Positions 6,042 through 59,139 are shown, numbered from the stretch's first letter. The stretch: 64,000 bases of DNA from Bugula neritina (GCA_964035545.1 OZ037769.1:9570129-9634128), one strand, 5' to 3'. The notes: generated by a model from the sequence alone, not told the origin. Translations and numbers: made by a program.

Positions 6042-6054
6042 GTCGCTAAGTAAC
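6042..6054 (+). promoter_or_regulatory. Candidate RFX X-box in the CFAP119 promoter
   Basis: GTCGCT-A-AGTAAC fits the X-box consensus GTNRCY-N0-3-RGYAAC and lies ~105 nt upstream of the ATG of a ciliary gene. RFX factors are known regulators of ciliary genes. Confidence 0.55.
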
Positions 6055-6158
6055 GCGCCATCTTAGACTGTTAGCCTTTGTGATTGATCGCAAATGTATC
6101 TTTAGTCAAAGCGATTTTAAAAATTAAAAAGAAAACCGCACAGCAACGGCTCAAGAGT

Positions 6159-11990
<5,832 letters not shown>

Positions 11991-13244: not shown

Positions 13245-13561
13245 TGTAGTGGCCAGTGAAGCGTAAGCGCCACGTGCTCACGAACCAATCCTCATTAAGC
13301 ACGTGATTATCCCCGGCGAAGCAGAAAGGCTTCCGAACAGTTGATATAATACAATTCAGTTAGAGCGTGATGCTGATTATATACTAGGTTAGATGTTTTA
13401 TATATGTGTGCTACTCGATGTATATTACTTTTACTCGTGTACTTGGTGTATTAAATAAATCCTCTTCTCTCTTCAATACTCGTCTGGTGTCTAGCAATGC
13501 AACGTGGATAATTATAGAATACACGAATCCCATACTTAGTATAATTGTGGAAATTATAACA
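13245..13561 (+). repeat. Gypsy 5' LTR (type B)
   Basis: TGT..ACA termini, internal CACGTG/CCAAT motifs and AATAAA, followed by a PBS. Confidence 0.8.
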
Positions 13562-13564
13562 ACG

Positions 13565-13582
13565 TGGTAGCAGCGGTGGGAT
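13565..13582 (+). promoter_or_regulatory. Primer-binding site, tRNA-Leu
   Basis: TGGTAGCAGCGGTGGGAT is complementary (1 mismatch) to the 3' end of eukaryotic tRNA-Leu(AAG/UAG), ..AUCCCACCGCUGCCACCA. Confidence 0.85.
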
Positions 13583-13623
13583 ATCTACATACTAACACGG
13601 ATGCAACCTAACTGACAATCACG

Positions 13624-14484
13624 ATGAAGATGGCGAGAGAACCAGCTCGACAGAAAGAAGGTGAGCCTGATATCACAATAACCCCAGAGGGTCCAGTGTT
13701 ACAAGGAGAGGAGGCTTATTGGTACCGATTGAAAGCTCCTACCTTTACTGGATCAGAAGATGTGGAACAGTTCATACAGGAATTCAGAGAGGTGATAGAC
13801 CTTGCTCAATGGCCACCCAGAGTGGCCCTTATTCAGCTACGGAGGGCATTGACGGAGCAGGCCAAGCCGTACGGACTAGGAACTAACATAGGCGGGATCT
13901 TTGCTGCGCTGCAGGCCCGTTTCGGTATCTCCGCAGTAGACGCCAGGGCCCGCCTGCAAAGATTATGCCGCACACCACGGACTTCACTACAAGAGCATGC
14001 AGCTACGGTGAAGAGACTGGCACAGATCGCGTATAGCAACTTACCAGTACAACACCAAAAGCGCTATACCTATGACGCGTTTGTCCAGTCATTGAATGAC
14101 TTGGGTTTACACCACCAATGGCAAGCCAAAGGAGTGACCACAGTGGAGGACGCCCTACGAGCTGGAGAGGCTTACCTATTAGCTACTCAACTACATAAGG
14201 AACAAAAAAACCCACCACCATTGGAAATAAACGCCGCGGAAGGATACGCGGCACCGCTACCTCTCTCTCACACCGCAGTGGCCTCGAAAGCCTTTCCCCT
14301 GGACGCGGAGGTGAACCGCATGGCAGGGATGTTAAAACAGCTGGTAGCGATTCTCGCTCACACCAACTCCATTCAACCACCGCAGAGGCCCCGCAGTTGC
14401 CTATGGCATCTGCGATGCCGGGCTGGGGAGGCGGTCGTCAGGATCGCCCCGAGAGAGGACACCCCCGGAATCAAAGGGCGTTAA
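13624..14484 (+). pseudogene. gag: Gypsy gag (3' end apparently frameshifted)
   Basis: YRLKAPTFTGSEDVEQFIQEF..QWPPRVAL capsid-like region, homologous to 28411 and 45741. The zinc knuckle is scrambled near 14400. Confidence 0.85.
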
Positions 14485-19844: not shown

Positions 19845-20955
19845 ACGGAGGCTTTGAGCTCTGAGGCGGCGGCAGCCACTCTAGGTGTCAGCCGTTGTAC
19901 TTCGGTCTCTAGGTCGTAGATCCGTAGTTCGACTTCTTTTAGATTCCGAGCGGTAGGGGAGTGCCGTTTTGGGGAAGAGGAGTGCCAGCGTCGCTTGTTG
20001 GAAGGTTGTGAGGAAACGGGGGAGGGAGAGCGTCGTTTCCTAGGTACTTCAATCCTCTGTAGGACAACTCGTGGTAGGGAGGTGGGACGGGGTATAGTTT
20101 GTGCTGGTGGAGAATGAGGGAGTCTTGTGGGTTTTTTATATTTGGGAGGCCTCGGACACGGTTCGTATGTGATGAGGCGGGGAGATGGGAACCCTTGTTT
20201 CAGCCGCTCGAAACGGGGAAGATCTGTGATGAAGGGTTTTACTAGATTCAAGGAGGTGGAAAAGTTGTGTCGGTCCACGTCGTACAGATGTCCCACGTGG
20301 CACTCCATGGTGCGTTGATGTTGAAGAATGTAGTCCCTGTGGTAACTAAATTCACCACAGGGACAGAGGGTGGTTATGAAATGTTGCGGTGTGCGAACTA
20401 GCAAACGGCGATGAGTAGAAAAATGCTGTTGACACAGCCTGCAGGTGGTGCAATCGTCACTGCCACGGTGAGTTTAGATTTGCTCCTCTGTCTCTTGAGT
20501 AACCCAACTGTGTCGCTGTAGTAGTATGTCTGGCAGGGAGGTGGGAGGTGTGTCGTCGTTCCAAGCCAACTCCAACGGTGGCATGTCTCCGTAATCAGGA
20601 GAGCGAGTGGCGTCTAAAAGAGCAGAATTATTGTTAGATCGAATTTGATCTTTACAGCATAATTCTGATGACAATCGACTGTTACTAGTCTGAGAGTCAT
20701 TCATCTTTTTATACGGCACTCAAAAGACTGTGTCAGAACGTGTAAACTGACTGAGAGACATAGTGTCTAGCTCCAGATCTAGTAGACCGTCAGCCATTAC
20801 TATGTCCTCGTCGTCATTCACGTGTGACTCCGTCTCCAGTAACTGTGATTCAATTAGATCGACTAAACCAGAGTTAACTGAGGTGAGATCTATTTCCATT
20901 AGTGGAGGTGTTAGATCTAGGCGAGCTTACCTTGAAACCCGGTATTTGAAATCAT
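19845..20955 (-). pseudogene. Spliced Gypsy accessory zinc-finger gene, type A (exon 20955-20931, intron 20930-20614, exon 2 from 20613; 3' truncated)
   Basis: ATG ATT TCA AAT ACC GGG TTT CAA G|gtaagc, acceptor ctaacaataattctgctcttttag, then CRLC..F..H..L...H and CPC..H....C motifs and a coiled coil. Confidence 0.75.
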
Positions 20956-23750: not shown

Positions 23751-25920
23751 AGGTCGCCAGGTGGCTCGAGATCTTAGCTGAGTTCTCGTACCGGATCGAA
23801 CATCGACCGGGCAGGAGACACAGCAATGCGGATGGGTTGAGCCTCCGACCTGATGGAGGTTATAAACAGTGTCTCAACATCGAGAGGAGGGACGGAGGTC
23901 CCCCGCGATGTGAATTGGAAACACTGGCTCACCACGGAGCGCAGTTTGACTGGGACCAGGGTTAACTCACACAGAAAATTGACGAGTCCCCGGAGGTTAT
24001 ACAAAACCTCCGCGCCAACCCTGTTTTGGCCGATAATGTCCGGGAGCTGAAGAAGCTTCAGGAAAAGCTGCCTGGGGTAGTGGCAGACATATATCGGGCC
24101 AAAAAGGAAGGGCGACGACCCAGCAAGGAACAACTACGGCAGGGGTACGCCGAGTTCCGGCTATTCTGCCAGCGTTGGGACTCGCTGAGGATCGGGCAGC
24201 ATAGTCTGCTGACTATTTCTCTAACTGCCAACGGCAGGCACCCAGAGCGGAAGAGGATGGTCTGTCCCACTGCCATACGCCGTGAGCTAATTTGGGACAC
24301 TCACAAACAAGCCCACGCAGGGGTCAAGAGAGTGGTCTCCAAGTTACGACTCCGATGGTATTGGCCACAGATGGAGCGTGACGTCCCACTTAGAGTAAAA
24401 CAGTGTGAAATCTGCCAGACCAGCAAGCATGGCCGTCTCTCTGGTGAAGCGGGATGGCGAAGGTTATATGCTGGAAGGCCGTGGCAAGTATTAGCTGTTG
24501 ACCTGGTCGGACCCATGCCCCTAACCCCCAGAGGCAATAGTTGGATCTTAGTATTGACCGACCACTTTACGAGGTTGGCGGATGCTCTGGCTATCCCAGA
24601 TGCGCCAGCTCCGACAGTGGCCAGGGTGCTAGACCTACATGTATTCTGTTACTTCGGGCTCCCCGAACAGATACACTCTGATCAGGGCGCTCAGTTCCAG
24701 TCTCAACTGATGAGTGACCTCTGCCGCCACTGGGGAGTGAATCAGAGCAGGACCATCCCGTACCATCCCCTAGGTAATGGGGTGGTGGAGCGCAATAACC
24801 GGATGCTAGGTGATGCGCTCCGGAGTCTACTCCTCCGACGCAGTCAGGAGGAATGAGACACGGTTTTGCCGCAAGTCATGCGCGCATACTGTAGCACCCC
24901 ACACACCAGTACTGGTGAGACCCCAAACCTCCTGATGCTCAGGAGAGAGACTCGTTTTCCTGACCATCTTACCTACCAGGTTCCAGAGCAAGACAGCTCG
25001 GTTCACGAGTATGCCAGTGAACTAGTGGAATGGATGAGGGTCGCACACGAAATGCTGCGAGAAAAGCAGTGGCAGGTGCGGCGCGAGGATTTCGAGGAAC
25101 CACTCCTTTATCAGACAGGAGATTGGGTGTGGATGGTCAATTACCGTAGGCGTCGCGGACAGGCAGCTAAGCTACAGCCTAAGTTTGTGAGACCCTACGT
25201 GATAGTCGAGACTATGCCCAACCATACCTACAAGATCGAGCGCTCAGGACAGGTGTCCGTCCAGAATGAGGCTTGCTTGAAGCCGTATTGGGCTAGCCCG
25301 GATGCAGTGGGAGAAGCCCCCCATTGTTGGAGCCCAGGAAGCAGACGACAAAGTGTGGGCGACGGCGGCATGGACCTGAGTATGGAGTGGTCATTCCGCG
25401 GGAAGAACACTTGGTACGAGACAAGCGACCGCTTTTGCCTACAGAAGTGCGTCCGCCGCCTCCTACGCCAAGTCTGATTCCATCACTTCCGGAAACCGAG
25501 CCGGTTCCGAAAGTGCAAACCCCCACAGAGGGAGGGGCTCCATCCGGAGAACAGGAAGAAGTAACCACTACCGGTGAACTAGAGGCGCCGTCAGAGGCCC
25601 CTGCTAGTCCACCGGTGAGTGCGTCACCCTCCCTAGAGCGGGTACAACATGCAAGGCAACCCCCATCATATTTAAAAGACTTCGTATGTGACTGCATTAA
25701 AAGCGGCGCGTATGAAAGTCTAGCGGGGAACCGTAGGGGAAAAGTATCGAGCAATTGTGGGAGTTGTCAACACCACAGAAATATCGACTTTTGTATCGGC
25801 GGAGTTAAGAATAAAATTCATCCGCCGGGTGTGCAGAGTCCTAGTCACGCACCCCAACCACCTTGCTCGATCTTTTCTTATGCTTATGCAGTCAAGAGCA
25901 GACGTGTTCCTAGTCAATAG
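23751..25920 (+). pseudogene. pol: Gypsy integrase and pol C-terminal extension
   Basis: ORFs 24026..24856, 24866..25477 and 25324..25920; DDE core (AVDL, HSDQG, VERNNR). Confidence 0.9.
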
Positions 25921-25946: not shown

Positions 25947-26990
25947 ATGTCATATGATAGCGGATCGTGGGGTGAGTTAACTATGTCTTGATATGGAAAC
26001 TAGATTGCATCACTCACCTCCGACTCGTCTGAGTCAATTGAGCTTGAGATAGGTTAGTGAACTACAGTGGTAGGAACTCAGTTGACTTAGAGATTTCACA
26101 ATCTCACTGCAATATGTGTTCTGTTCCAACTACTCACTACCGTAAATCTCTACGAGTGGTAACTGAACGAGAAGTTGCCAGGCTGTCCAAGCCGACAACA
26201 CTACAGTGTAATGTACTAACACTGTTGAAACTCTTTCAGGTTACACTCGACCCGCCGCAACCAGGGTACGGGATAGAGCACCTTCCGCTCCGCACCATGA
26301 AGAGTAAGCCAAAGGCAGACGACCTGAGCCACTGCGCCGCTGCTGTCGGTGGGTGTCGCCGGAGACGGAGAAGCAGATAGAAGCAGCCTGGGGACCCCAA
26401 GGAAGGACACAGTGTCAGATCTGCTACAAAGAGTGCCCGTCTCACCGCTCATTGAAGCTACATGTCATCGCACACCTCCTACTAACATTCTGTCTCTGCG
26501 GATACAATAATGTCTACCCCTATCCCGTCACCTGACATCGAGCAGCTGGCTGTTTCCCCAGAGAGAACTATGTGGTCGACGCTAAGCTCTACCCGGAATT
26601 TCTGACTCTAATACGGCCCTTAGTGAAGAAGGCAATGTAACTGGCCGTCCGAACCTCCGGCTTCCAGCATGTATTAGACTATGCCAGGCAACAGTCCCCA
26701 TTGGTGTCCGACCGTCCTCAAGTTGTGTATACCCCCAAAGAGTTCGCATACCCTGAAGAAGAGGAGGAAGAAATCGCACCTCCCCTCGTAGGAAACGAAC
26801 CCCATCTCCAGATCCTGCTCGCCTGGCCACAGTAGAAGAGCGTCTCCTTCGGCTGCAGGCTGAGTTCACCCAGTTAGCCCCGGATCTACTCAGTACTACA
26901 ACGGGACTTTACCAATTAAAAGGCTCTGTTGGCCGGATTGAAAGGAAATTACGTGCCCGTCAAGCCAAACATTGGCTTGCCAAACACTGA
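25947..26990 (+). pseudogene. Spliced Gypsy accessory zinc-finger gene, type B (exon 25947-25971, intron 25972-26239, exon 2 26240-26990)
   Basis: ATG..TGG G|gtgagt donor, TACTAAC branch point (26214-26220), ctctttcag acceptor. Spliced frame gives WVSPETEKQI..CQICYKECPSHRSLKLHVIAH..FCLCG..H....C and a coiled coil, with several in-frame stops. Confidence 0.75.
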
Positions 26991-27274: not shown

Positions 27275-27609
27275 TGTGGTGGCCCGTGGAGCTACCAGCA
27301 GCGTAATATGGGAAATATTATTTCCCCCACTGATACAGCACAGGGTCACGTAATTGACCCGGAACAATGGACAGCCAATTAGCGACACTGATAGTTAGTA
27401 GCAGTAGTTAGTTTTCCGCTGTTAGTCGAAGATAGAGTATTGAATTGTATAGATGTGTAGATTAACTGAGTGTATTTGTGTAGTTTTTGTGATGTATTCT
27501 TGTGTGTAAAATATACTCGTATTAACTCGACTTATCCTGGTGAAGTTCTCTAGCAAATAAATAGACTCTCTTGATTGCACATCAACCCAAATCTGAAAAT
27601 TATATAACA
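27275..27609 (+). repeat. Gypsy 3' LTR (type A) preceded by PPT
   Basis: TGTGGTGG..ATAACA, preceded by GGTGGGGGCGG. Homologous to 28074, 35320 and 37870. Confidence 0.9.
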
Positions 27610-28410
27610 TGAAACTCCCTTGCCAGAATGTAAAAAGACTCATTTCCCAGCTTGTTTTTTTTAAGTATTGCTTGTTACATAAAATAGAATAATTATTTGA
27701 GCATCCAACACTAACAAGCTAATCTCATGTTTTCATAAATTGCAAGAGCAATTTTATATGTTGTTGGGTACTTTTTGCAGCAAAATGTTTAAAACCGTAC
27801 CACTCTCTTGTTTTATTATTCGCAGATGTGAAACACCAACGATCTATATGAGGTGTTGACAAGCACAAGCCTTGTTAGTGGTCAAAGAGCCAAAGGTTTG
27901 ACACACCGTGGAAAGTTAAAGGTGAGAGAAGAGAACAAAATGTTGTGTAAATGTCATAAGATGAAAAGTATTAACCTACCATTTCTCAATTACTGTACAT
28001 CGTCTATTTTCAAGTAATTAATGCATAGTAAGCAGTGTTTATATACTCTGTGTAATTTTTTATATCTTTAGATTGTGGTGGCTCGTGGAGCTACCAGCAG
28101 CACAATACGCAGGGTCGCGTAATTGACCCGGAACGACAGCCAATTAGCGACTTGAGTAGTTAGTAGCAGTAGTAGTTTTCCCGCTGTTAGGCAGTCGAAG
28201 TTAGAGTGTTGAATAATCTAGATGTGTAGAATTATTGAATGTATTTGTATAGCTTTTGTAATGTGTTCTTGTGCTTAAAATATATACTCGTTCACTCGAC
28301 TTATCCTGGTGAAGTTCTCTAGCAAGTAATTAGACTCTCTGGATTGCATATCAACCCAAATACAAAAAATCATAACAGTGGTGGCAGCGGTGGGATAGTG
28401 CACATCCAAG

Positions 28411-29364
28411 ATGGAGACTGAAAACGCTGGAATGCAACCACCGGCAGTAGAAGGTGAGCGTAGAGACAATGCTGTAGAGAGAATGCCTGTAAACCATGTA
28501 GTAGAAGAGCGAAGGGCTCCGCGGGAACTGACTGAAGACCGCTACCGGTTAAAGGCGCCCACCTTCACGGACGAAGAAGAGGTGGAGCAATTCATCCAAG
28601 AGTTTAGCAACGTAATGGACGTCGCCCAGTGGCCCCCTAAGGTGGCCCTGCTGAAGCTCAGAATGGCATGGATAGACAAAGCCAAGCCCTTTGGGCTGGG
28701 CGTAGACATCGATAATATCTTTGCTTCTCAGCGGGCCCGCTTCAGCCTCTCTGCTACAGATGCCCGGGCCCGACTGCAGAGGTTGCGGCGTGATCCTCAC
28801 ACCCCGCTACGGGAACATGCCGCCGCGGTCATGAAGCTGGCACAGATCGCATACAGCGACTTGCCTCCAGTCAACCGCGAGAGGTATACCCTTGACGCCT
28901 TCATACAATCTGTCACCGATCTGGGTCTCCACCACCAGTTTCTAGCTAGGGGAGTCACCACCATTGAAGATGCTCTGACAGAAGGGGAAGCTTACCTCCT
29001 GGCCAATCAGATGCATAAAAGTCGCGGGAACTCCCGTCAAGTGGAGGTAGACCGCGCGGACACGGCAGCGGGACAAGAGGAGGAAACCTTCGCGACGGCT
29101 GCCGTGGCCCAGTTAGCGACAGCATCGAAAGCCACTCAACTGACTGACATGCTGGCCAAACTGATAGCAACACTGACACCCCAAACCCAAGTAGGTACCG
29201 CCGCTGAGCTCGTACGGCCACCGGCGCCGCCACCGGGGGAAACGGGCAGTTTTTGCTGGGAATGCGGAAATCAAGGACATTTCCGCAGGTACTGTCCCTT
29301 CCTAACTACGGGGTTAAACTACCGCGGCCCGCAGATGTTCCCACCTCCTGCGGGCCAACAATGA
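28411..29364 (+). CDS. gag: Gypsy Gag with CCHC zinc knuckle (intact ORF)
   Basis: 317-aa ORF directly after the PBS; CWECGNQGHFRRYC knuckle. Confidence 0.92.
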   Translation: METENAGMQPPAVEGERRDNAVERMPVNHVVEERRAPRELTEDRYRLKAPTFTDEEEVEQFIQEFSNVMDVAQWPPKVALLKLRMAWIDKAKPFGLGVDIDNIFASQRARFSLSATDARARLQRLRRDPHTPLREHAAAVMKLAQIAYSDLPPVNRERYTLDAFIQSVTDLGLHHQFLARGVTTIEDALTEGEAYLLANQMHKSRGNSRQVEVDRADTAAGQEEETFATAAVAQLATASKATQLTDMLAKLIATLTPQTQVGTAAELVRPPAPPPGETGSFCWECGNQGHFRRYCPFLTTGLNYRGPQMFPPPAGQQ

Positions 29365-32300
29365 AACCTCCAGGGAAGAAAAAACGCAGGCCACCCAGAC
29401 GGGTACCGCGTGCTGGCAACCAAAAGTGGCAACAGCCGCGACGGACCAGCCAGGGGCTTCGCCCCGCCGCTACGTTTTCCATGCCCCTCCACAATCGATT
29501 CGAAGGGCTACCAGCCCGAGAATCTGGATGGGAGCCAGCAAAGGTAGCCGGAAACCTAGCCTCGGCACCTCCGAGGCCCCCTTACCACCATCCCAAGAGA
29601 CCTCCTTCGCGACCCAAAGCGAGGGAGGTACTCCCTGCGAGAGCAAGGCCTGAAGAGAGAGTTCAGGTGCGGCCTCATTGGAACAGCTATTTCTTGCCTG
29701 GTAAATTGGAAGGCAAAGCTGTTACTTTCCTCATCGATTCGGGCTGTACCACGAACCTCCTAAGTCGCCAACTCTTCGACACACTCAGTGCTAAGGTTAG
29801 GAGCGAGATGGAACCGTATGAGGGGGAGTATGGCACCCTAGCTGACGGGTCGAGCCTTCCCTTCTATGGTATAATTGAGCTGACGGGACAAGTCCGTGAT
29901 CAAACGATCCAAGAGACGTTTATCGTCAGTCAGCTCAAGGAAGGCGCCATCCTCGGGATGTCATTCCTGAAACGGCACGGATGTCACGTCGATTTTAGTA
30001 AATCTGCGATGGTGATGTCCGGGCGAGAACTCGCCTGCGTCGACAAGTTCGGCCGCCCTTTAGTAGAAGGCGTGCAGGTGGTACGCAACTGTACTGTACC
30101 AGGCCGCTCCCGGGCTACCATTCACTGCAGGGTGAACAATAGCCGGATCTTTGGACTCGGGGTAGTCGAAGGCGCGCACGAAAGGATCCAACTTGCCAGC
30201 AGTCTGAACCAGCTGACTGAGCAAGGGGAGATCTTAGCGCGGTGTGTCAACCCCTTTACCGAGTCTGTCAAGCTTCCGACTGGGTCTATGCTGGGCCGGT
30301 TCCACTCCATTCAGGAGGAGGACGTGGGCCCGTCGCTAGGTGATGCGACGGAGGCACCCCCTCGGCGCCCTACTCAAGGGCGAGGGACAGTCCCAACACA
30401 CATCTGGGAGTTATATGAAACAGCCAGTGGTGGCTGCGCGAGTAACAAGGATCGCCAAGCTATGGCGAAGTTGCTACGCGACTACGGTGATGTGTTCAAC
30501 AGCGGAGATCATGACGTGGGACTGACTGGAGTTGTCAGACACGAAATACCGCTGACTGCAGGGACAGTCCCTGTCCGGCAACCCACACGCAGGCTGGGGC
30601 CGGAGAAAGAGAAGGAGGTTAGCCGACAAGTACGGGATCTTCTGGACCGCGGCCTCATAGAGCCCGCCCATAGTGTGTGGAGCTCGCCGGTCGTACTGGT
30701 CCGGAAGAAAGACGGCAGTTGGCGGTTCTGTGTGGACTACCGCAAGCTCAATAGCGTAACCATACAGGACGCCTACCCTCTACCTCGTATTGACAAGTCA
30801 TTGGACACCCTAGCCGGCAGCAAGTACTTCAGTACGTTAGACTTGTTGAGTGGTTATTGGCAAGTTCCTCTGAGTCCCGACGCCCAGGAGAAGGTGGCGT
30901 TTATCACACGGGACGGTTTGTGAAAATGGAAGGTGTTGCCCTTCGGGTTAACTTCCGCCCCAGCCACCTTCCAGAGGCTGATGGAGCAAGTCCTCAGCGG
31001 GCTCCATTGGAAGACACTGCTGATCTACCTCGATGATGTCATCGTGATCTCCCCAGACTTCGAGACGCATGTCAGTCGTCTGCGGGAGGTCTTCGAGAGA
31101 CTCCGAGGTGATGGTCTTAAGCTCAAACCTTCCAAGTACGCTCTATATCAGCCGGAGGTCAAGTACCTGGGGCACGTTGTCGGTCGAAACGGCGTGGCAA
31201 CGGATCCCGAAAAGGTACGAGCGATAGAAGACTGGGTCACCCCCCAAGACTTGACCGGACTCCGGGCTTTCTTGGGGCTGGTAGGGTATTACAGGCAATA
31301 CATACCAGACTTTGCGGGCATAGCACAGCCGTTAAACCGGCTCACCGCAAAGGGAGTGACGTGGCAGTGGACCCCAGTCGAACAGGAAGCGTTCGATCGC
31401 CTCAAGGGTTGCCTCTCAACGGCACCCATCTTGGCCTACCCAGACCCCACTCTGGAGTACATCCTCGACACTGACGCCAGTGACCAGAATGTTGGCGCTG
31501 TGCTGTCCCAAGTGCAGGAAGGCCGAGAAGTAGTAGTAGCTTACTACAGCAAGTCTCTCTCACCCACTGAACAAAATTACTGCACTACCCGCAAGAAGCT
31601 GCTGGCAGTAATCAAGTCAGTGAAGCACTTCAGATCATACTTATATGGCAGGAAGTTCCGGCTGCGTACGGATCATGCCTCGCTGATATGGTTGTGCAAG
31701 AGAGCAGAGCCCTCCAGTCAGGTCGCCCGGTGGCTCGAAATCCTAGCTGAGTTCTCGTACCGGATCGAACATCGACCGGGCAAGAGACACAGCAATGCGG
31801 ATGGTTTGAGCCGGCGACCTGATGGAGGTTGCAAACAGTGTCTCAACATCGAGAGGAGGGACAGAGGTCCCCGCGATGCGAGCTGGAGACATTGGCTCAC
31901 CACGGAGCACCGTTTGACTGGGACCAGGGTCAACTCAGGCAGGAGATTGACGAGTCCCCGGAGGTTGTACAAAATCTCCGCGCCAATCCTGTATTGGCCG
32001 ATAACGTCCAGGAGCTGAAGAAGCTCCAGGAAGAGTTACCTGGGGTAGTGGCAGACATATATCGGGCCAAAAAGGACCGGCGACGACCCAGCGAGGAATG
32101 CATACGGCAGGGATGCGCCGAGTTCCGGCTATTCTGCTAGCGTTGGGACTCGCTGAGGATCGGGCAGGATGGTCTACTGACCATTTCTCTAGCTGCCAAC
32201 GGCAGACACCCAGAGAGGAAGAGGGTGGTCTGCACCAGCGCCATACGCCGCGAGTTAATTTGGGACACTCACAAACAGGCCCACGCAGGAGTCAAGAGAG

Positions 32301-33906
32301 TGATTTCGAAATTGCAACTCCGGTGGTATTGGCCCAAAATGGGGCGGGATGTCCGGCTCAGAGTAAAACAGTGTGAAATCTGCCAGGCCAGCAAGCATGG
32401 CCGTCTCCCTGGTGAAGCAGGACGGAGGAGGCTATATGCTGGAAGGCCGTGGCAAGTATTAGCTGTTGACCTGGTCGGACCCATGCCCCTGACCCCCAGA
32501 GGCAATAGTTGGATCTTAGTACTGACCGACCACTTTACTAGGTGGGCAGACGCTCTGGCTATCCCAGATGCGTCAGCCCCAACAGTGGCCAGGGCGCTAG
32601 ACCAACATGTATTCTGTTATTTCGGTCTCCCCAAACAGATACACTCTGATCAAGGCGCTCAGTTCCAGTCTCAACTGATGAGCGACCTTTGTCGCCTCTG
32701 GGGAGTAAATCAGAGCAGGACAACCCCCTACCATCCCCAAGGTAACGGGGTGGTGGAGCGCAATAACCGAATGCTAGGTGATGCGCTCCGGAGTCTCCTC
32801 CTTGGACGCGGTCAAGAGGAATTGGACACGGTGTTGCCGCAAATCATGCGTGCATACCGTAGCACCCCACACACCAGTACTGGTGAGACCCCAAACCTCT
32901 TAATGCTCGGGAGAGAGACTCGTGTCCCCGACCATCTCACCTACCACGTTCCAGCGCTAGACAACTCGATTCATGAGTATGCCAGTGAACTAGTGGAACG
33001 GATGAAGGTCGCACACGATATACTGTGCGAATAGCAGTGGAAGGTGCGACACGAAGATTCCGAGGAACCACCCCTCTACCAGACGGGAGATAAGGTGTGG
33101 ATGGTCAATTATCGTAGGCGTCGTGGACAGGCGGCTAAGCTACAGCCTAAGTTCGTGGGACCCCACGTGATCGTCGAGGCGATGCCCAACCATACGTACA
33201 AGAATGAGCGCTCAGGACAGGTGTCTATCCAGAATGAGTCTTGCTTGAAGCCGTATTGGGCTAGCCTTGACGCAGTGGGAGAAGCCCCCCCGTTGTTGGA
33301 GCCCAGGAGGCAGACAACAACACGCGGGCGACGGCGGCATGGACCTGAATATGAAGTAGTCATACCGCGGGAGGAAGACTTGGTGAGAGATGAGCGACCG
33401 CTTTTACCAACAGAAGCGCGTCCGCCACCGCCAAGTCTGATTCCATCACTTCCAGAAACCGAGCCGGTTCCGGAAGTGCAAACCCCCACGGAGGGAGGGG
33501 CTCCATTCGGAGAACAAGAAGAAATGACCACTAACGGTGAAGTAGAGACGCCACCAGAGGCCCCTACTAATAAACCGGCGAGTTTGTCACCCCCCTAGAA
33601 CGGGGACAACGTACGAGGAAACCCCCACCATATTTAAAAGACTTCGTATGTGACTGCATTAAAAGCGGCGCGCATGAAAGTCAAGGGGAAAACCGTACGG
33701 GAAAATGTTGGAGTTACGAGCCCCACGCAAATATCAACTTTTGCGAGGGCGGAGTAGTGGGAGGAATTAATGCGCATAAAGCAAATAGTTCCGACCTCGT
33801 GCCACAGAAACGATGCCCAGCCTTTTCTTACGCTGACATCGCCAAGGGCAGACGTACCTCACAATTAGCTCCAACCCTTACCACGAACATTGAGTATGGA
33901 AACTAA
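29253..33906 (+). pseudogene. pol: Gypsy pol polyprotein (PR, RT, RNase H, INT, GP(Y/H), Pro-rich tail), a few disablements
   Basis: ORFs 29253..30923, 30933..32018, 32225..33034 and 33044..33598. Stops at 30921, 32138, 33032 and 33596, and a frameshift near 31870. Confidence 0.93.
29313..29356 (+). promoter_or_regulatory. -1 programmed ribosomal frameshift signal (G_UUA_AAC plus stem-loop)
   Basis: The heptamer is in the gag frame, followed by a 6-nt spacer and a 9-bp stem GGCCCGCAG/CTGCGGGCC. The pol ORF (29253) is in the -1 frame relative to gag. Confidence 0.8.
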
Positions 33907-35028
33907 TACCGAGTTCACAGGTAAGCCAGTATAAGTCTTGTATTCCTATCTATGGAAACTGGCTCGATGCCAGTAAATTCTGAGCTAATCCATCGGATTG
34001 AATCAGAATTACTGGGGACCACGTTTCACGTGAATGACGACGAGGACACAGTAATGGCCGACGGTCTGTTAGACCTAAAGCTAGACACTGTTCTTGGTCA
34101 GTCCACGCGTGATCCACTGGTCTTTCGAGTGCCTTTTAAAAGTTGTGACTCTCAGACTAGTAACAGTCGACAGCCACCAGAATTATGTTGTAAAGATCCA
34201 CCGCGATCTAACAATAATTCTACCTTTGTAGACGCACTCGCTCCCGTCTCTCCGGGCATGCCCTCCCTAGACATGGCATGGGACCCAGAGCCGACCCCAC
34301 CAACTTCTACAACTAGACAACTGCCACACCAGTTAGAAGCGACCTCCAGCTGAACTACTCCCGCCACGGAGACGGAGATCAAGAAATATAGAGGAGATGA
34401 CAATAACCGGGAGTGCCGCCTATGTCAACAGCGGTTTACAACACACCGTAGATTGAGAGTCCACTTACTGCAGCATTTTATTACAACGTTCTGCCCCTGC
34501 GGGGAGTATAGTTACAATAGAGACTACGTGTTGCGTCATCAACGCACTATGCACTGTTTTCAGGGCCACGTGTATGACGTGGATAAATCTTCTTACTCAG
34601 CATTCCTCGAAATCATCAGACCCCTTATCACAGACTCAGCTCGGCTCTCTCGCCTGGAGCAAGGTTTCCCTCCTCCTCGACCCATCATCCCTGGACCAGT
34701 AGACAAACCTTCAAAATCATCTAACTCCCCACCTCTCAATTCTGTGCGTCGACCGCAGACACTCCCCCGTGTCGTGTTACAGAGGGTTGACACACAGACT
34801 TACACACTTCCTCCCCCGCTCCCATCCACAGAACGGAAGAGACACCGGCATCAACAGATCCTCTCCCGCTCATCCCCTCTGGCTCGCAACCTACGGGAGG
34901 TCGAGACTAGGGCAAACAAATTAGAACAAGAGGTGTATAGACTAGCCCCCCGTATTCACGCAGCATCCAGTGAGCTCCGGTCGCTACAGGAGTCCATCAG
35001 ACGGATGAAACGAGCAGCCCAGGATTAA
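33896..35028 (+). pseudogene. Spliced Gypsy accessory zinc-finger/coiled-coil gene, type A (exon 33896-33920, intron 33921-34231, exon 2 34232-35028; one TGG>TGA stop at 34351)
   Basis: ATG GAA ACT AAT ACC GAG TTC ACA G|gtaagc and ctaacaataattctacctttgtag acceptor. Canonical C2H2 finger CRLCQQRFTTHRRLRVHLLQH, second finger CPCGEYSYNRDYVLRHQRTMHC, C-terminal heptads LREVETRANKLEQEVYRL..LRSLQESIRRMK. Confidence 0.8.
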
Positions 35029-36214
35029 TATGGGTTCCCCTCAAACCTCAGACCTTACTTCTCTACTTTACTCTCCCGGATCTATGCTACCTCTCCGTGG
35101 CGTCCCCCGGTGTTACTGTGGCACATACTCTATATATGTATATAAGACTTAATAGTTACTTAGTATTATTTCGATGTGCACGTTTATATGTATCTAATCA
35201 ATTCTGTTTCTGTACATACATTTTATATCTTTTTTTCCCTTTTGGTCCACTGATGTACGTGGTTAATTGTGAAATGTTTTTTTTGTATCAGAAAGAGGGC
35301 TTTCTGCTGGTGGGGGCGGTGTGGTGGCTCGTGGAGCTACCAACAGCACAATACGCAGGGTCGCGTATTGACCCGGAACAATGTACTCAGCCAATTAGCG
35401 AGGCCGCTAGTTAGTAGCAGTAGTTAGCTTCGCGCTACTAGTCAGTCGTGAATAGTGTAATAGATTAAAAAGACGTATAGATTTCTGAATGTTTTATACC
35501 GTTTTTATTATGTATTACTATGCTTAAAATATACTCTTATTAACTCGGCTTATCTTGGTGAAGTTCTCACGCACTAAATAGACTCTCTTTATTGCACATC
35601 AACCCAAAAACTGGAAATTACAACAATATACATGCTAATTGTTTACTTGAAATTTTAAAAATAGCGTAGTAGTTTGTGGGTTATAGAATGAAATCAGGCA
35701 GAGAACATAACTCCTTGTTATAGAAGAGACAAGAGAGAGTGTGTGCAGTACTTTATTGTAGCATAGATACTTCCATTGCGAGCTCCAGTTCTCAAGTGAC
35801 TGAAGCTCTACAATGCGTGTCCTTTTATACCAGTAGAACAAAGGACTTTTAGAACCTTCGACCGACAGCGGGCCAATGCACGGCAGGGGATGGCACTGAT
35901 TATGTTGGCAACCGACATTCGGTTTGATGGCATCCACCTGCCGAACTCGGTCCAACTGTCGGTTTACATAAATAAGCAAAAATGAACCCAACCAAGTGTA
36001 TGCATATTGTAACTTGTAATTGGGGGAAAAGGGATTAACTATTTACTATGCTAAAAGCTTAACAATAGCCATAGTATTTAAGGTGTTAGAAAGTTACGCC
36101 AAAGACTTAGCTATAACTACAGTATTTAGAAAAATAGCCATAAGTAATGTGTCAAGGGGGATAACTCTTAATATTTACCACAATAGCATGGTTAAGTAGT
36201 ATTACTGTGCCTAT

Positions 36215-37869: not shown

Positions 37870-38207
37870 TGTTATGATTTTCAGTTTTTGGGTTGATGTG
37901 CAATCAAGAGAGTCTATTTATTTGCTAGAGAGCTTCACCAGAATAAGTCGAGTTAATACGAGTATATTTTACGCACAAGAATACATCACAAAAGCTATAC
38001 AAATACATTCAGTAATTGATACATCCATACAATTTACTACGCTATTCTCAACTAACTAACAGCGGGAAACTAACTACTGCTAACTGCGTTCAGCATCGCT
38101 AATTGGCTGTCCATTGTTCCGGGTCAATTACGTGACCCTGTGCTGTATCAGTGGGGGAAATAATATTTCCCCGTATTACGCTGCTGGTAGCTCCACGAGC
38201 CACCACA
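37870..38207 (-). repeat. Solo LTR (type A) with 4-bp TSD ATAG
   Basis: Reverse complement of the LTR at 27275, including its ~30-nt insertion. ATAG at 37866-37869 and 38208-38211. Confidence 0.92.
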
Positions 38208-41890: not shown

Positions 41891-44800
41891 TGTAATAACC
41901 ATTTTACCCAAAATGCATTACAATTGCTATAAATGAAAGATAAGTGAATTGGATGCAAATAGTGTTGTGATTTACACAATGTTAATGCGTGGTCCCTAGC
42001 TTGTGATTTTGAGTCAATTATCCGCAGCAATACAGGGCTTGTGATAGGATTAAAATATATTTATTTTCAGTTACATACTAAGAAAAGTTACACATGAAAC
42101 GCTCCGATTAATTAGTTACATCCTCACTAATTACTAGCACGCTCTCTAATTACAGTTATCCTATATGTTACGCATCGCTGGGGGTATCACCTGACGTATC
42201 TCTAATTGGCCAGGGGACACGTTGGGCGCATATCGTGTGCCCCACTACACCGCCCCCCCCAGCAGGAAGCCTACCTTCCTGATAACAGCAGATAAATCAA
42301 TAAAAAATATAAAAATAAGAAAATATAAATGGAGAGAGATGCGTGCGTGGTATATAATACAAAAAAAAATCACAATCACAAAAAAAATAAAACAAAATAT
42401 AAACAACGCTACGGCGTCGACAATATCACACACAAAAAAAATACTTGCAGGCCGACGGCCTATATGACTAAAAAAAGGAAATACTTTCAGACTAACTATA
42501 ATACTGTTATACTGAGATTTTGTCATGACACCGGAACACGAGATTGAAGGCTGTAGATACGACACCACCTGCGGCGTAGTAAGGAATAGGGGAGCAGGAC
42601 GAGGGGAAAGGGTAGTCAGGCACTCAGTCCTAGGCGTTTCTCTTCAGTCGAGCCACAGAGTCACGGAGGGCCCGGAGTTCGGAGGCGGCGGCAAATATCC
42701 TAGGTGTCAACCTTTGCACTTCTCTCTCCAACTTATGTATCCGTTGCTCCGTCTCTTTTAGGTTCCAGGCGCAAGAAGAGTGGCGGTTAGGAGATGAAGA
42801 TATCCAACGCCGCTTACGAGAGGGTCGGGGAGAAACGGGGAGAAACGGGGGGAGAGGGACGCCATCGTTGTGGCACTTCGATGCGTTGTAGCACGACTCT
42901 GGGTATGGAGTTGGGACGGGGGACTGTGTGAGCAGGGGGTGACGGACGGGGTGTTTGGGGTTTCTTAAATCCCGGGGGTTTGGGGCAGGGTCCTTGTGTA
43001 ATGACACGGGGCGCGAGGAACTCTTGGCGCAGCCGTTCATAGCAAGTCGGGTCTGAGATAAATGGTCTGATGAGGTCGAGGAAATGGGGGAAAGAGGGTT
43101 TGTCGACTTCGTAGAGATGTCCAACATGACACCCCATGGTCCACTGGTGGCGAAGGATGTAGTCCCTGTGGTAACTATATTCACCACAGGAACAGAAGGT
43201 GGTGATATAGTGTTGGGGGACGTGGACTCTGAGTCTGCGAGGAGTTGTGAAGTGGAGCTGACACAGACGGCAGGTGGTGCATTGATCATCGCCTTTATAT
43301 TCCTAAATGAGTGCCTCGGTGTCCTTGGTAATTTAGCATGACTGGGTTAAGAGTATTTCCGGCAGCGTGACGGGGGTAGGTTCCTCATCCCAGGCCATCT
43401 CCAATGGCGACATGTCATGAGGGAGAGAAGAGCGAGTGGTATCTAAAAGAGCAGAATTATTGTTAGATCGAGTGTGATCTTTACAGCATAATTCTGATGA
43501 CAACCGACTGTTCCTAGTCTGGGAGTCATGCATCTTTTTATACGGCACTCGAAGCACCGTGTCATGACGTGTAAACTGACTGAGAGACATAGTGTCAAGC
43601 TCCAGATCTAGTAGATTGTCGGCCATTGTTATGTTCTCGTCGTCTTTCACGTAACACTCAGTCCCCAGTAGTTGTGATTCAATCAGAGAGATTAAATCAG
43701 AACTAGCTGATGTTAGACCTGCTTCCATGGATGGGAATGTTAAGTCAAAGCAAGCTTACCTGGGAACCTGGTATTTGAAATCATACTCAGCGTTCAAGCT
43801 TGGATGTTAGTGGATTGGATTTGGATACGTCTGCCCTTGGTGATGTCAGCGTAGGAAAAGACCGGACAGTGTGTTTGTTGCGCACGGCTAGAACTGTTTG
43901 CCCCGAGCATAGTAGTTTTGTCCACTACTCCGACTTCGCAAAAGTTAGTATTCCCGTGGTGTTCACAACTCCCACTTTTTGCTGTCAGTCTTTTCGTACG
44001 GTGCCCAGCTAGACTTTCATAATTGCCGTTTGTAACACGGTCAAATACGAAGTCTTTCAAGTATGCTGGGGGTTGTCTAGTACATTGTCCTCGTTCCAGG
44101 GGAGGTGACCTACTAGCTGGGGCAGACGGTGTAGTTGTTGGTCGGGGCGGTGTACTCACTGGTGGGCTATTGTGCTCCACCGGTGGTGTTTCTGGCCCGT
44201 CGTTGGTGACGGTATTCTCTTCCCCGTCATTGTCTCTGGATGGAGCCTCTCCCACGCGGGGTTTTGCACTTCCGGACGCGGACGCGGATTCGGAAGTGGT
44301 GGTGGAAGGTTTGGCGTTGGGGGCAGAGGGCGCACTTACGTTGATGGAAGTGGCCTTTCCTGCCTTACCGAGTCCTCCTCCCTCGGCACAACCACTTTGT
44401 ATTCTGGTCCATGCCGCCGCCCACGCATTGCTGACTGCCTCCTGAGCTCTAACAATGGGGGGGGGGCTTCTCCTGCTGGGCTAGCCCAATACGGTTTCAA
44501 GGGGGCTTCATTCTGGACAGAGACCTGTCCAGAGCGCTCCAACTTGTACGTATGATTGGGCATCGCCTCAACTACCACATAGGGTCCCACAAACTTAGGC
44601 TGGAGTTTAGCCGCTTGTCCTCGACGCCTACGGTAATTGACCATCCATACCCAGTCTCCAGTTTGATAGAGGGGTGGTTCCTGAGAGTCCTCTTGCCGCA
44701 CCTGCCATTGCTGTGTTCGCAGTATTTCGTGTGCGGCCTTCAGGTCCTCTACCAATTTACTGGCATATTCATGGATGGTGCGGTCCTGTTCAGGGATGTG

Positions 44801-45680: not shown

Positions 45681-48600
45681 TGGTGGCAGCGGTGGGATCC
45701 TAGCTACTGTTTGGAAACGATGGAAGAACAGTAGAACATTATGGCCGAGAGTACAGCTTCAAACGAAGAAGGTGAGCGAGACACTATCATAAGCCCTCTC
45801 GAGGTCGAAGAGGAGGCGTATAAACATACAGTAGAGGCTCCCATCTTCACGGGCCTAGAAGATGTTGAACAATTTATTCAGGAATTCAATGAAGTTGTAG
45901 CCATTACAAGATGGCCGCCGAGAGTAGCCCTGATAAAGCTACGGATGGCACTGACGGAACAAGCCAGGCCGTACGGGCTGAAATCCAGCGTAAACGAGAT
46001 CTTTGCTGCGCTGCGGGCCCGTTTTAACATACCTGCCGTAGTTGCCAGGGCCCGTTTACAGGGACTGCTCCACAGAACATGTACACCACTCCCGGACCAC
46101 GCTACCCTAGTGAAGAGACTGGCACAGATCGCGTATGGCGACTTGCCAGAAACACACAGGCAGCGCTATACGTTCGAGGCTTTTGTACAGTCAATCAACC
46201 ATTTGGGCCTCCACCACCAGTTACAAGCGAGAGGAGTGACCAGGATAGAGGCTGCACTACAGGAAAGCGGGGCTTACCTGGGGGCCGAACAACTCTATCG
46301 AGTCACTGGAGGATCAGACCACCCGGTCCGAATAGCTGCCGCTACCACTAGCCCCTCCTTGGAGACGGAGGTCGATCGCTTAATGACTATGCTGGAACAG
46401 TTGGTGGCGACCATAACGTGTAGCAGACCCGCGAGATCCAGGAGACCAGAAGAAAAAGCTCCCCGACCAACTGCCCTATGCTGGAGGTGCGGCACGCGGG
46501 GACACCTCTGCTCAAGTTGTCCACAACCTAAGAAACCTGAAACCCCACAATTCGCGGAAGCCCTCAAAACTCCGCGGACCGGATAAGAAGGAAAAGCGGG
46601 GCGGGTACCGCCAGACGTCCGTACGGACTCAGTGGTATGCCCCCCCACCAATGGCAGACACCTCGTCGGACCAGCCAACCTGACCGACAACAAGAACACT
46701 TCTCACTGCCTCTCACTAACCGCTTCAGCCTGCTACCAGAAATGGAGCAGGCTGGCGAGGTCCCTTCGGACATCGGAGGGGATCAACACACCCCTCTGCA
46801 AGAGAACCCTCGCCCCCGCCGGCCCCACAAACTGCGGAACAAACGGGCACCGCCCCGTTCGGCCGAGACCGAACACGCTGGGGGAGTACGGGTACAAACT
46901 CACGGAAATAGCTATTTCTTGCCTGAAAAGGTGGCTGGCAAGGCTGTCACCTTTTTGCTAGACTCCGGGTGTACCACTAATCTCCTCAGCCGTCGGGTCT
47001 TCGACACCCTTCCCCCTAGGAAGAGGGGAGCCTTAGCTCCCTATACCGGGGAACCGGGCACCCTTGCTGACGGGTCGCGGATTCCATTTTATGGTATTAT
47101 AGAGCTGGCTGGGCGCGTCCAGTTGCTACGCGAATATAGCAACGTGTTCAGCAGTGGGGACCATGACGTAAGCCTGACGACGGCCGTTCGTCATGAGATA
47201 CCGTTGGCTGCAGGGACTGCCCCTATCCGACAACCCACTCAGAAATTGAGATCAGAGAAGGAGGTTAGCCAACAAGTCCGGGATCTTTTGGACCGCGGCC
47301 TCATAGAGCCAGCACATAGTGCGTGGAGCTCGCCGGTCGTCCTGGTCCGAAAGAAAGACGGCAGTTTGCGGTTCTGTGTGGATTATCGCAAGCTAAATAG
47401 CGTGACCATACAGGAGGCCTACCCCTTACCCAAGATCGACAAATCTCTGGACGCCCTAGCCAGCAGCAAGTACTTCAGTACGCTAGACTTATTGAGCGGC
47501 TACTGGCAGGTCCCTCTCAGTTCCGACGCCCAGGAGAAGGCGGCGTTCATCACGCGAGACGGCTTATGGAAGTGGAAAGTCTTACCTTTTGGACTGACTT
47601 CCGCCCCCGCCACGTTCCAGAGGCTCATGGAACAGGTCCTCAGTGACTTCCAGACACATGTCAGTCGTCTGCGGGAGGTTTTTGAATGACTCAGAGGTGC
47701 CGGTCTGAAGCTCAAACCCTCCAAGTGCACTCTCTTGCAGCCAGAGGTAAAGTACCTGGGGCACATCGTCGGCCGTCACGGCGTGGTGACAGATCATGAA
47801 AAGGTTTGAGCTATAGAAGACTGGGTCACCCCCCAGAGTTTGACCGGGCTCCGGGCATTCCTAGGGCTGGTGGGGTATTACCGGCAATACATACCAGACT
47901 TTGCGGGGGTGGCGCAGCCGTTAAAATCGGTTCACCGCAAAGGGGTGACCTGGCAGTGGACTTCCGTTGAACAGAGGGCGTTCGACTGCCTCAAGGGCCG
48001 CCTGCTAGAGGCCCCCATCTTGGCCTACCCAGACCCTGCCCTGGAATACATTCTAGATACTGACGCCAGTGACCAGAATGTCGGCGCTGTGCTGTCCCAG
48101 GTGCAGGAGGGCCGCGAAGTAGTCGTGGCCTACTACAGCAAGTCTCTCTCACCCACTGAACAAAATTACTGCACTACCCGCAAGAAACTGCTGGCAGTAA
48201 TCAAGTCGGTGAAGCATTTTAGACCCTATCTATATGGCAGGAAGTTCCGGCCGCGTACGGACCACACCTCCTTGATTTGGTTGTGCAAGAGAGCAGAACT
48301 GTCCAGCCTGGTCGTCAGGTGGCTCGAGGTCCTGGCCGAATTCTCTTACCGGATCGAACATCTGCCGGTAAGAAACACAGCAATGCCGACGTAACATCGA
48401 GAAGAGGGACGGGGGTCCCTCACGATTCGAGTTGAGAGCACTGGATCACCCTAGAATAGAGTATGACTGGGACCAGGGTCGACTCCAACAGAAGGCTGAT
48501 ACGCCTCCGGAGCCCATTCAGAGCCTCTGCGCCAACCTTGTCTTGGCTGGTAACATCAGAGAGCTACGAAAACTCCAAGAAGACTTTCCAGGAGTAGTAG

Positions 48601-50246: not shown

Positions 50247-51880
50247 ATATATATATATATATATATATATCACGGGTGGTGACTAGTCCTGGCATTTCTC
50301 TATACTTCCCCGTTGGTCATGCGGTGACCACGTGTTAATGGTCGTGTTGACTGTTTTTTATTTCTCCAATCAGGATAAAGGCGAACCTACGATAACGAGG
50401 GAAAGAACATTCTCCCACGTCAGTAAGGGTTTACTGGACTAGCAGTAAACACTTGTTTAACTAATTGTATTAACTTTTCTTGACTGATGTAGAGTTTATT
50501 AATATTGTATCTTGTTGTACAAATACAGTCCTATTATTCTAACGTTACAATCCTTCGGAGTTGATTACATAACTGTCTGTAATGAGCTGATTAGATTATA
50601 CACAAGTACCCACACTGACAAGCAGAAAATTATAACAGTGGTGGCAGCGGTGAAACACCACAACGGGTAGAAGGTGAGCATGACAATAATATTGTTCTCG
50701 TGGACCCCGCGGCAGAAAAAAACAACAAGCAAGCGAGATTAATCCACCAGTTGTGAAATGCCCCGGTCACGCGCAACAACCACAACGCCCAGTCGTTTTT
50801 TATGCTGATGCAGTTAAGAGCAGACGTGTTAGTAGTCACACATAGTAATCATTCCTAGTGCTCCAGTATGCCCGGCGACTCCGGTTTCCGGGGTGAGTTA
50901 TCTATTATGCTTCTAGTACAGAAACTGAATTGCATCAGCCAACTCTGAACTCAGTCAAGTTAATTAGACTGGATATCCGGCTAGTGAAAACAAGTGGCAA
51001 GAATACGGACTGACAGGGGAGTCTTGGTGATTCTAAATTGCGATTCGTATTCTCGGTCAATCATTCACTGGTATTGATCTCGCGAGTGTTAACCGAGAAA
51101 AAGTTAACTGTCAGGCTGTCAGGCGGTACCTTAGTGTAGGCTTGAATTATTACTGTTGTGCTCTTTCAGGTACCACTCGCCCTACTGCTATGGATTCTAG
51201 GACACCTATCCCTACCTGGTCACACGACCACGTACCCAGTCAACCCCTCTTCTCCCCTCATCAACTACAAAGAAGGAGAGTTGCCAGCGCCACTGTGCCG
51301 TCGATGCCGGTAGGTGCCGGTAGGTGCCGCCAGCCACAGAAGAGAAAATTAAGGCCCCGATGGAAGTACCAGGTGCCAATTATGTCATGAGAATTGTCCG
51401 TCTATTTGCTCGTTGAAGGCCCATGTGGATGCCCAGTAGTTGCTAGTCTTCTGCCTCTGTGGACAACATAATGTTCACTCTTACGCCATTATCGAGCACC
51501 AGGCTCGAGCCGGTTGTTACCTCGGTGCCACATATACCGTAGACGAAAACAACTACCAAGACTTTTTTCCTATTATATGACCTCTAGTTTATGAGGGTCT
51601 ACTCCTAGCTGTCCTTTTCCAAGGGTTCTAGACGCTACAGGAATATGCCAGTCATAAATCGCACACCATCTCTAGGCAACCTAGGCCAACACCTCCACAG
51701 AGTGAACCGTTAACCCAAAACAGTGTAGAAGAAGATGTGGATCTACCCCACAGAGATTCTCCATCTATATCAGAGCGTCTTAGTTGCTTATCCACAGTAG
51801 AAGAAAGACTCAGCGGTTGCAGGCAGACTTTACCCAATTGGTGCCCTGACTCTTAACTACTACTACCAGGCTATATCAAT

Positions 51881-56038: not shown

Positions 56039-56319
56039 ATTAAAAGACTCTGTGAGCCGGATTAAGCGGAGGCTCCGTACCCAGCATGCAAAACATTATT
56101 CTTATTCAACTAAACATTAACCCTCTTTGAGAGCGTACATCTGTGAATCCTGTCCTTCCTGGTTAGCTCAGTGGACAACGTTGCGTCCATGTAAATGACA
56201 CCCCTTCCTACCTATAGTATTGTGTAAATTTGTTAATACATTTGTGTATTATTTCTCTCTTTATGTTATGGTGTATCTTTATTTTCTGTGTGTGTTGTTG
56301 TTTCTTATATATTTATATT

Positions 56320-56983: not shown

Positions 56984-57110
<127 letters not shown>

Positions 57111-57114
57111 TATA

Positions 57115-58853: not shown

Positions 58854-59139
58854 TATATAATTATATGCATATGATATTGTTGTAGTTTTCTGCACTACTA
58901 GTAAGGGTATTGTTGCATGCTTAATAGTAACTGCCTATCCACTGGGAGGTTATGTGAAGAACCGAACTAAATGATTGCTTACCGAGAGAACTGTATTAAT
59001 CCAATCACGCACAATAAAAATCAGGTACAAATATAAAAGAGAACAGAGTACAATTAGCAAAATACTGCATAAAGGTAACCTATCTATATAACTGTCATTA
59101 TCAAGACTGGTGTGGGCACCGGAAGGTATTGTTTATAAC

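Follow-up and report, generated by a model that had tools for sequence, protein, structure and literature searches.

Regulatory accessory genes are a mark of complex retroviruses. HIV Rev/RRE, HTLV Rex and HERV-K Rec pair a small spliced nuclear protein with a structured RNA of about 300 nt that is present only in incompletely spliced RNA; Rev, Rex and Rec use an Arg-rich motif and a nuclear export signal (NES), not zinc fingers. Among Gypsy elements, the literature that we searched gave one characterised regulatory accessory case, CERV of the C. elegans Ty3/Gypsy element Cer1. According to the accessible text of PMC10309623, CERV is a spliced, env-position nuclear protein that shares Gag exons, carries a cysteine finger, a zipper, a nuclear localisation signal and a proline-directed phosphosite, and exports genomic RNA, for which it is needed. 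Other third open reading frames (ORFs) are known from long terminal repeat (LTR) retrotransposons. The accessible parts of the respective sources describe errantiviral env-F, a third ORF joined by splicing to a short 5′ exon, which lies inside gag in the idefix subclade (PMC12992720); rotifer non-Env ORF3s, which are GDSL esterases, DEDDy exonucleases or transmembrane proteins (PMC5408684); and plant additional ORFs, which are non-Env, in the env position and in some cases nuclear proteins (PMC7264820). Here we analysed a 64,000-nt stretch of the Bugula neritina genome (OZ037769.1:9570129-9634128, hereafter the window), in which a first-pass annotation had proposed a spliced accessory gene, ORF3, in the env position of a Gypsy lineage.

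The element at 28074-35625 is a Ty3/Gypsy LTR retrotransposon, as its pol has the order protease, reverse transcriptase (RT), RNase H and integrase, and it has TG...CA LTRs, a primer-binding site (PBS), a polypurine tract (PPT) and a CCHC gag. The order is LTR, PBS, gag, protease-RT-RNase H-integrase, ORF3, PPT and LTR, and ORF3 lies 3′ of every integrase C-terminus in the window (4/4). The third gene, ORF3, takes the place of env without being an env gene; it is under selection and encodes a protein of an unnamed two-finger family. As to function, we tentatively favour, by analogy, a Rev/CERV-like nuclear regulator, through which unspliced genomic RNA would avoid being spliced or retained in the nucleus. 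DNA-level tests were performed on the five ORF3 copies in the window.

Splice signals of ORF3

The first-pass annotation had reported five sites at which an ATG precedes a splice donor by 25 nt. We searched both strands of the window (128 kb) for ATG-N21-G|GTRAGY and obtained five matches, exactly at those five sites; G|GTRAGY alone occurred 35 times. The donor is G|GTAAGC at 20955 (−), 33896 (+) and 43784 (−), designated type A, and G|GTGAGT at 25947 (+) and 50868 (+), designated type B. In the 28074-35625 element, the type A micro-exon (33896..33920, +; eight codons from the ATG plus a G) ends at the donor SD2 in phase 1. The predicted intron (33921..34231, +) has an internal ATG at 33952 and ends at the acceptor SA2. 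Exon 2 (34232..35028, +) encodes a two-finger core, a linker with a basic cluster and Ser-Pro (SP) sites, and a coiled coil, with an in-frame stop at 34351-34353.

The other type A copies are on the minus strand at 19850..20955 (micro-exon 20931-20955, intron 20614-20930, exon 2 from 20613) and 42627..43784 (micro-exon 43760-43784, intron 43443-43759, exon 2 from 43442). The type B copies are on the plus strand, one at 25947..26990 (micro-exon 25947-25971, intron 25972-26239, exon 2 from 26240) and one in a derivative at 50639..51830, whose 3′ end is approximate (micro-exon 50868-50892, intron 50893-51169, exon 2 from 51170). As first described, the introns are 268-317 nt long (20955, 317; 25947, 268; 33896, 311; 43784, 317; 50868, 277), and all end in a pyrimidine tract and YAG. 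The branch motif CTAAC lies exactly at −24 in 4/5 copies, both types being represented, and is absent in 50868. The five copies counted at first are all broken in exon 2 by in-frame stops, and some by frameshifts too, the first stop lying 30-81 codons into the predicted spliced frame; the 50868 copy, which is heavily broken, belongs to the derivative, which lacks gag-pol.

An early idea was that the ATG and its 25-nt spacing are a by-product of the pol frame ending at the donor. This was ruled out by the varying pol register. The ATG follows the last conserved codon of the pol tail (lysine) at 50, 52, 54, 53 and 52 nt, corresponding to three registers, and the pol frame ends at five different places while the ATG-to-donor distance stays 25 nt. 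Thus, the fixed spacing is independent of pol. The N-terminus of P0124, a homolog of unrelated source, resembles the type A micro-exon peptide.

A second donor, overlooked in the first-pass annotation, is located near the start of gag. This sequence, GAAG|GTGAGC (SD1; 28450..28459, +), is the predicted major splice donor and is invariant at 4/4 element 5′ ends, 30-95 nt past the PBS, where the adjacent Gag sequence can hardly be aligned. Four matches to the 10-mer were found in the window, compared with 0.09 expected. SD1 lies at codon 10-14 in phase 1 in 3/3 copies with a gag ATG: 14 gag codons and 1 nt past the ATG in the 28074-35625 element, and in the second and third gag starts at 13657..13666 and 45768..45777 (both +). 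The ORF3 acceptor is also in phase 1, so that a direct splice would yield an in-frame Gag-N/ORF3 protein. From these signals, a retrovirus-style gag-to-ORF3 splice is predicted, and the predicted splicing plan, with two phase-1 donors and one phase-1 acceptor, is richer than first reported. The micro-exon is likely one of two alternative first coding exons, read from a start site within the element or following a further splicing event. In the derivative (SD1 at 50670-50679), no ATG occurs between the PBS and SD1; therefore, translation of the spliced RNA could first start at the ATG of the micro-exon. An E-G-E amino-acid motif could contribute to the conservation of SD1, but the codons used do not vary, and a gag frame is lacking in the derivative.

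At approximately 33830-33855 and at matching sites in the four other copies, a pol-tail motif, (F/S)Y-A-D-x-x-K-(G/S)-R-R, overlies a pyrimidine tract and AG. This is a protein motif or a weak candidate for an upstream acceptor, SA1 (33820..33852, +); the conservation could be at the protein level.

In a sequencing run resembling genomic DNA (X1), no intron-skipping or SD1-acceptor joint was found among the joints examined (15/92 and 4/4). Scans of metagenome contigs and viral contigs gave no related loci. The gene and its splicing are very probably real.

The ORF3 protein family

Type A and type B proteins are homologous, with 24% identity (E 2e-16). Searches with the type A and type B frames found 68 and 12 homologs, respectively. 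Among 1.84 billion representatives, a joint profile matched 344 clusters at E ≤ 0.001, with generic fingers possibly present in the tail, and 158 at E ≤ 1e-10. We aligned 96 proteins from part of the best 150 clusters; the ligands C, C, H, H, C, C and H, a G and a V-D pair were at least 90% conserved. The homologs came from metagenome and read assemblies, and the sole name met was 'hypothetical protein'.

No Pfam family defines the ORF3 domain. The best, zf-C2H2_4, matched 16/96 proteins, and scores were mostly under the curated cut-offs. A PDB sequence search gave ORF3 no name, a Foldseek-type fold search of PDB and BFVD gave no match at E ≤ 0.001, a whole-model VIA search returned generic helices only, and Atlas gave only weak generic C2H2 clusters. 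The ORF3 core is a zinc-finger domain that annotation pipelines leave unnamed. The protein was first presented as an unrecognised regulatory one; no Pfam, PDB or fold match names its family, whereas the concept has a precedent in CERV of Cer1 (accessible text of PMC10309623).

AlphaFold predicted a confident core of approximately 110 residues (predicted local distance difference test score, 91), disordered flanks and a helix at the C-terminus (residues 316-364). Finger 1 is of the classical C-x2-C-x12-H-x3-H form with an Arg-rich helix. The second finger is of the C-x-C type and begins five residues past the last His, and the canonical inter-finger linker is absent. As first claimed, the phase-1 exon 2 frame includes the fingers, the linker and the coiled coil. 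The basic cluster and SP linker were clear in type A, being present in 15/16 proteins (6.8 expected). The modelled protein is likely nuclear.

Exon 2 is under purifying selection. The pooled ratio of nonsynonymous to synonymous substitution (dN/dS) in type A was 0.15 for the core and 0.25 for the linker, where pooling covers three non-independent pairs and includes post-insertion decay. In the core, 183/357 differences were at third positions, and the two other frames gave 1.06 and 1.69. In the type B core, the proportions of synonymous (pS) and nonsynonymous (pN) differences were 0.69 and 0.33. The core ratio is far from the value near 1 that would have counted against the first-pass proposal.

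The location of ORF3 between pol and the PPT and the gag-proximal donor resemble those of errantiviral env, as far as the accessible text of PMC12992720 describes it, and would fit an atypical envelope or fusogen. This reading is barely credible. The non-Env character proposed at first agrees with the hydropathy, in which no transmembrane segment was found (the 19-residue maximum was 0.96 in 11 type A proteins; type B reached up to 1.80, within the folded core), with the lack of any env family among the Pfam matches of the 96 homologs, and with the zinc-finger fold model.

Some homologs (P0101, P0127, P0182, P0219, P0235 and P0227) matched the profile in two stretches, and P0227 also has an aspartic protease far upstream of the ORF3 domain. 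These are possibly duplicated, domesticated or non-autonomous forms. That P0227 joins a protease to the domain, together with a pol-tail-like motif in frame with the domain in 3/240 proteins (P0125, P0190 and P0237), would fit a role of ORF3 in tethering integration or in the particle, comparable to that of the chromodomain in chromoviruses, with the protein made on its own or as an extension of Pol. We regard this as improbable. In 5/5 window copies, pol terminates either ahead of the micro-exon or inside it, and the register between pol and ORF3 varies, so that a conserved Pol-ORF3 fusion or readthrough was ruled out. In addition, the single fused proteins are possibly decayed copies, and 10-14 Gag residues would be unlikely to direct packaging.

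The intron and the function of ORF3

The first-pass annotation had named a transactivator, a Rev-like export factor, an anti-silencing factor and an integration tether as possible functions, with no preference among the four. Under the Rev/CERV-like reading, the acceptor would be joined to one or the other donor in early transcripts, so that ORF3 begins with 10-14 Gag residues or with the 8-residue micro-exon peptide. The protein would enter the nucleus, oligomerise via the coiled coil and bind the structured RNA of the small intron, which is present only where the acceptor is unused; in the predicted fold, the last hairpin of the intron hides the branch point. Full-length gag-pol RNA would thereby stay unspliced and be exported. 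We favour this role because two strong donors and a strong acceptor still leave a need for unspliced RNA export, because the candidate element at the acceptor differs by ORF3 type, and because CERV provides a precedent. The first-pass argument that a sense intron persists only via unspliced genomic RNA holds; it is true of every env intron and so is unsurprising.

The type A intron is conserved at the nucleotide level. Its pS was 0.27-0.43, compared with 0.67-0.75 in the exon 2 core, and its differences showed no third-position bias (77/61/86 by codon position). The summed contig depth at 80% likeness, a measure of presence and not of copy number, was mostly 23,000-76,000 over the intron, 5,600-15,700 at 34090-34161 and 9,000-12,000 upstream. 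Folding z scores of the three type A introns were −5.0, −3.3 and −3.9, and the introns share predicted hairpins. Among 11 windows of 311 nt, the intron was the best (mean z −3.7, structure conservation index 0.81). A long central stem is found at the corresponding position of both type B introns (z −5.5 and −1.4), where the model of the type A central stem also matches them, weakly, on the matching strand. Rfam gave no match in the introns. The type A intron likely folds into a conserved RNA structure, with a predicted signal modestly above that of the pol controls.

The type A intron also holds an open reading frame that starts at the internal ATG and runs on into exon 2, with 1, 0 and 0 stops in the three copies compared with 7-13 in other frames. 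Thus, the interval has the splice signals first ascribed to it, but in type A it is no neutral spacer; it is a nucleotide-conserved open frame with its own ATG. Type A ORF3 might accordingly be a plain unspliced 365-residue protein starting within the supposed intron, its splice signals being partly coincidental or serving RNA-level control only. Besides the open frame, type A-like homologs continuing in frame over 140 residues upstream through the intron (35/91) are about as frequent as those over the same distance downstream (32). We consider this reading hardly probable. The intron-frame dN/dS of 0.47 is hardly under that of the +1 frame (0.59), indicating weak protein-level constraint, and intron-frame differences are less conservative (0.18 and 0.30) than those of the core (0.43). 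Type B introns are not open, and the donor, branch motif, acceptor and phase are kept in both types. A long form can also coexist with splicing; such an intron-retaining form with an acidic extension is possible, though doubtful.

Several results weigh against a Rev/CERV-like regulator. The structure signal comes from three sequences, and pol windows reached a mean z of −3.2, an index of 0.72 and 9-13 compensatory pairs, compared with 14 in the intron; the latter (14/100) were dropped as strong evidence given these controls. In 155-nt windows, the intron halves were unexceptional, and z ≤ −4 occurred in 7/37 windows across the element, the intron window being the lowest. Whole type B introns were ordinary (z −1.1 and −0.2), and their matches to the type A central stem model have E values of 2.7 and 5.6, among 15 non-training matches. 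A structured element could also act alone, via host factors. An NES-like pattern occurred in 6/11 long type A proteins, confined to the intron-coded part, and in 2/7 type B proteins elsewhere; therefore, the spliced type A form would lack it. The basic/SP linker, first ascribed to both types, was not enriched in type B (2/10, a regex-defined group) or in remote homologs (8/34). Finally, the best structural matches of the core were DNA-binding tandem C2H2 pairs, Kaiso (Z 4.0, root-mean-square deviation (rmsd) 3.0 over 58 residues) and ZBTB20 (Z 3.6, rmsd 2.4 over 50), all of them weak.

These matches bring in a DNA-binding role, in which ORF3, as a coiled-coil dimer, would be a transactivator or anti-silencing factor acting on the LTR or an internal promoter, and the structured intron would be a separate cis element tuning splicing. 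We consider this role somewhat unlikely, although it stays close to the Rev-like one since DNA-binding finger pairs superpose on the core and the RNA structure might function by itself. Finger 1 has the classical spacing and Arg-rich helix, and the best overlays of the model are with DNA-binding units of two fingers. The N-terminal region is often acidic (median net acidity 0.12 in type A and 0.09 in remote homologs), and the LTR U3 has an inverted repeat, GGGTC..TGACCC. However, the matches do not exceed Z 4.0, and the fold search that the first-pass annotation had proposed gave no significant hit. The canonical linker is missing, and what would be the recognition helix of finger 2 contains prolines in type B. 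Moreover, the type A and B fingers differ although the LTRs of all four copies are 78-91% alike.

This likeness of the LTRs, set against the 24% identity of the A and B proteins, suggests that the LTR does not track the ORF3 type, whereas the intron does. The latter point is weakened for the Rev/CERV-like reading, as the intron adjoins exon 2 and joint inheritance needs no functional link. The pol of the type B copy (23734-25805) and that of the type A copy (31703-33755) are 87.6% identical until approximately 200 nt before the ATG and approximately 45% thereafter, which points either to a swapped ORF3 cassette or to a chimera formed after insertion. The LTRs of the 28074-35625 element are merely 78% alike and its flanks are AGAT/ATAT; the element may be chimeric, possibly by a post-insertion event, and this weakens the idea of a module swap. 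A complete, independent Rev/RRE-like feedback circuit would comprise a two-finger protein with two phase-1 first exons, a structured coding intron to which it binds, an intron-retained acidic NES-like form switching from spliced to genomic RNA, and a protein and response element swapped between subfamilies as one cassette. We regard this full version as unlikely.

Surrounding elements and comparison with known systems

The 28074-35625 element begins with the 5′ LTR (TG...CA; 28074..28377, +), which shows 78% identity to the 3′ LTR at 35320, followed by the PBS (28379..28396, +), which we take to be of the tRNA-Leu type and whose motif recurs at 13565, 45681 and 50639. The gag gene with a CX2CX4HX4C knuckle (28411..29364, +) precedes pol (29208..33906, +), which encodes protease, RT, RNase H, integrase and a low-complexity tail and is interrupted by stops and a frameshift. 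The PPT and 3′ LTR occupy 35290..35625 (+), with the LTR starting from 35320. The type B copy at 25947..26990 is followed by a PPT at 27245 and an LTR at 27275-27604 (+). The derivative has a PBS at 50639 and a pol-tail remnant (+), and may represent a non-autonomous family or a single deletion.

The U3 of the LTRs at 27275, 28074, 38207 (−) and 35320 contains the inverted repeat GGGTC(A/G)-CGTAAT-TGACCC, one base shorter in 35320, followed by CCGGAA and CCAAT. This is possibly a dimer-binding site of the host or the element. A solo LTR at 37870-38207 (−) has a 4-bp target duplication, CTAT. The host genome is AT-rich, and 13565-59854 is a crowded nest of truncated, partly inverted copies, all of one Gypsy lineage, which resembles a transposon graveyard or a piRNA-cluster-like region. 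Within it, 51878-56041 is a Harbinger-like DNA transposon with terminal inverted repeats of approximately 1 kb (97%) flanking a DDE_Tnp_4 / HTH_Tnp_4 transposase fragment (54200-54664). Another DNA transposon is probably present at 57094-58877, where inverted repeat arms of approximately 830 nt are 89% alike. A host exon at approximately 8630-8890 (+) matches Pfam CLAMP (flagellar C1a-32; E 1.4e-13).

We found no description of ORF3 in the literature searched, including the accessible text of PMC2774666, PMC8220671 and 10.1101/2025.03.14.642691; supplements, Repbase, Dfam and GyDB, which lay outside this search, may annotate it. In surveys of molluscs and annelids (PMC6238403 and PMC8556966), a term search of the accessible text found no mention of zinc, additional ORF or third ORF. 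ORF3 shares the non-Env character and env position with the rotifer and plant ORFs, and the term 'zinc' occurs in neither main text (PMC5408684 and PMC7264820), as far as these are accessible. It resembles errantiviral env-F in the predicted gag-proximal splice to a third ORF, and differs in having no signal peptide or transmembrane helix by hydropathy and no homology to fusion proteins. With the tandem C2H2 pairs of Kaiso, ZBTB20 and SALL4, it shares the finger 1 spacing and the two-finger geometry (rmsd 2.4-3.0 over 50-58 residues). Unlike these pairs, it has a C-x-C second finger, an extra Trp-bearing N-terminal helix and C-terminal helices, which together make a compact 110-residue domain without the canonical linker (Z ≤ 4).

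Like CERV, ORF3 is an env-position ORF; a splice to the Gag N-terminus is predicted for it from the phase-1 SD1 in 3/3 gag starts. CERV has 517 amino acids, five exons, H, M and G-protein-like domains and a C4-type loop, and no homologs beyond nematodes are reported in the accessible text of PMC10309623. By this description, ORF3 is set apart by its length of approximately 270-365 amino acids, a fused C2H2 and CxC..H..C core, a C-terminal coiled coil, two phase-1 donors and a putatively structured intron; its model has one small core and a helix, and no G-protein-like domain. We infer the likeness to CERV or Rev by analogy, and do not assign ORF3 to either family. If the Rev/CERV-like reading is true, ORF3 would add to CERV a zinc-finger family that seems unrelated to it, counts hundreds of divergent members and comes with a candidate RNA element of its own, and would show that LTR retrotransposons gain such regulators repeatedly. 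It would also offer a small protein-RNA pair with which to ask how retroelements move intron-containing genomes out of the nucleus. Compared with Rev, Rex and Rec, type A ORF3 has a basic cluster and a long C-terminal helix, and its NES-like motif lies outside the spliced form; the predicted logic is alike.

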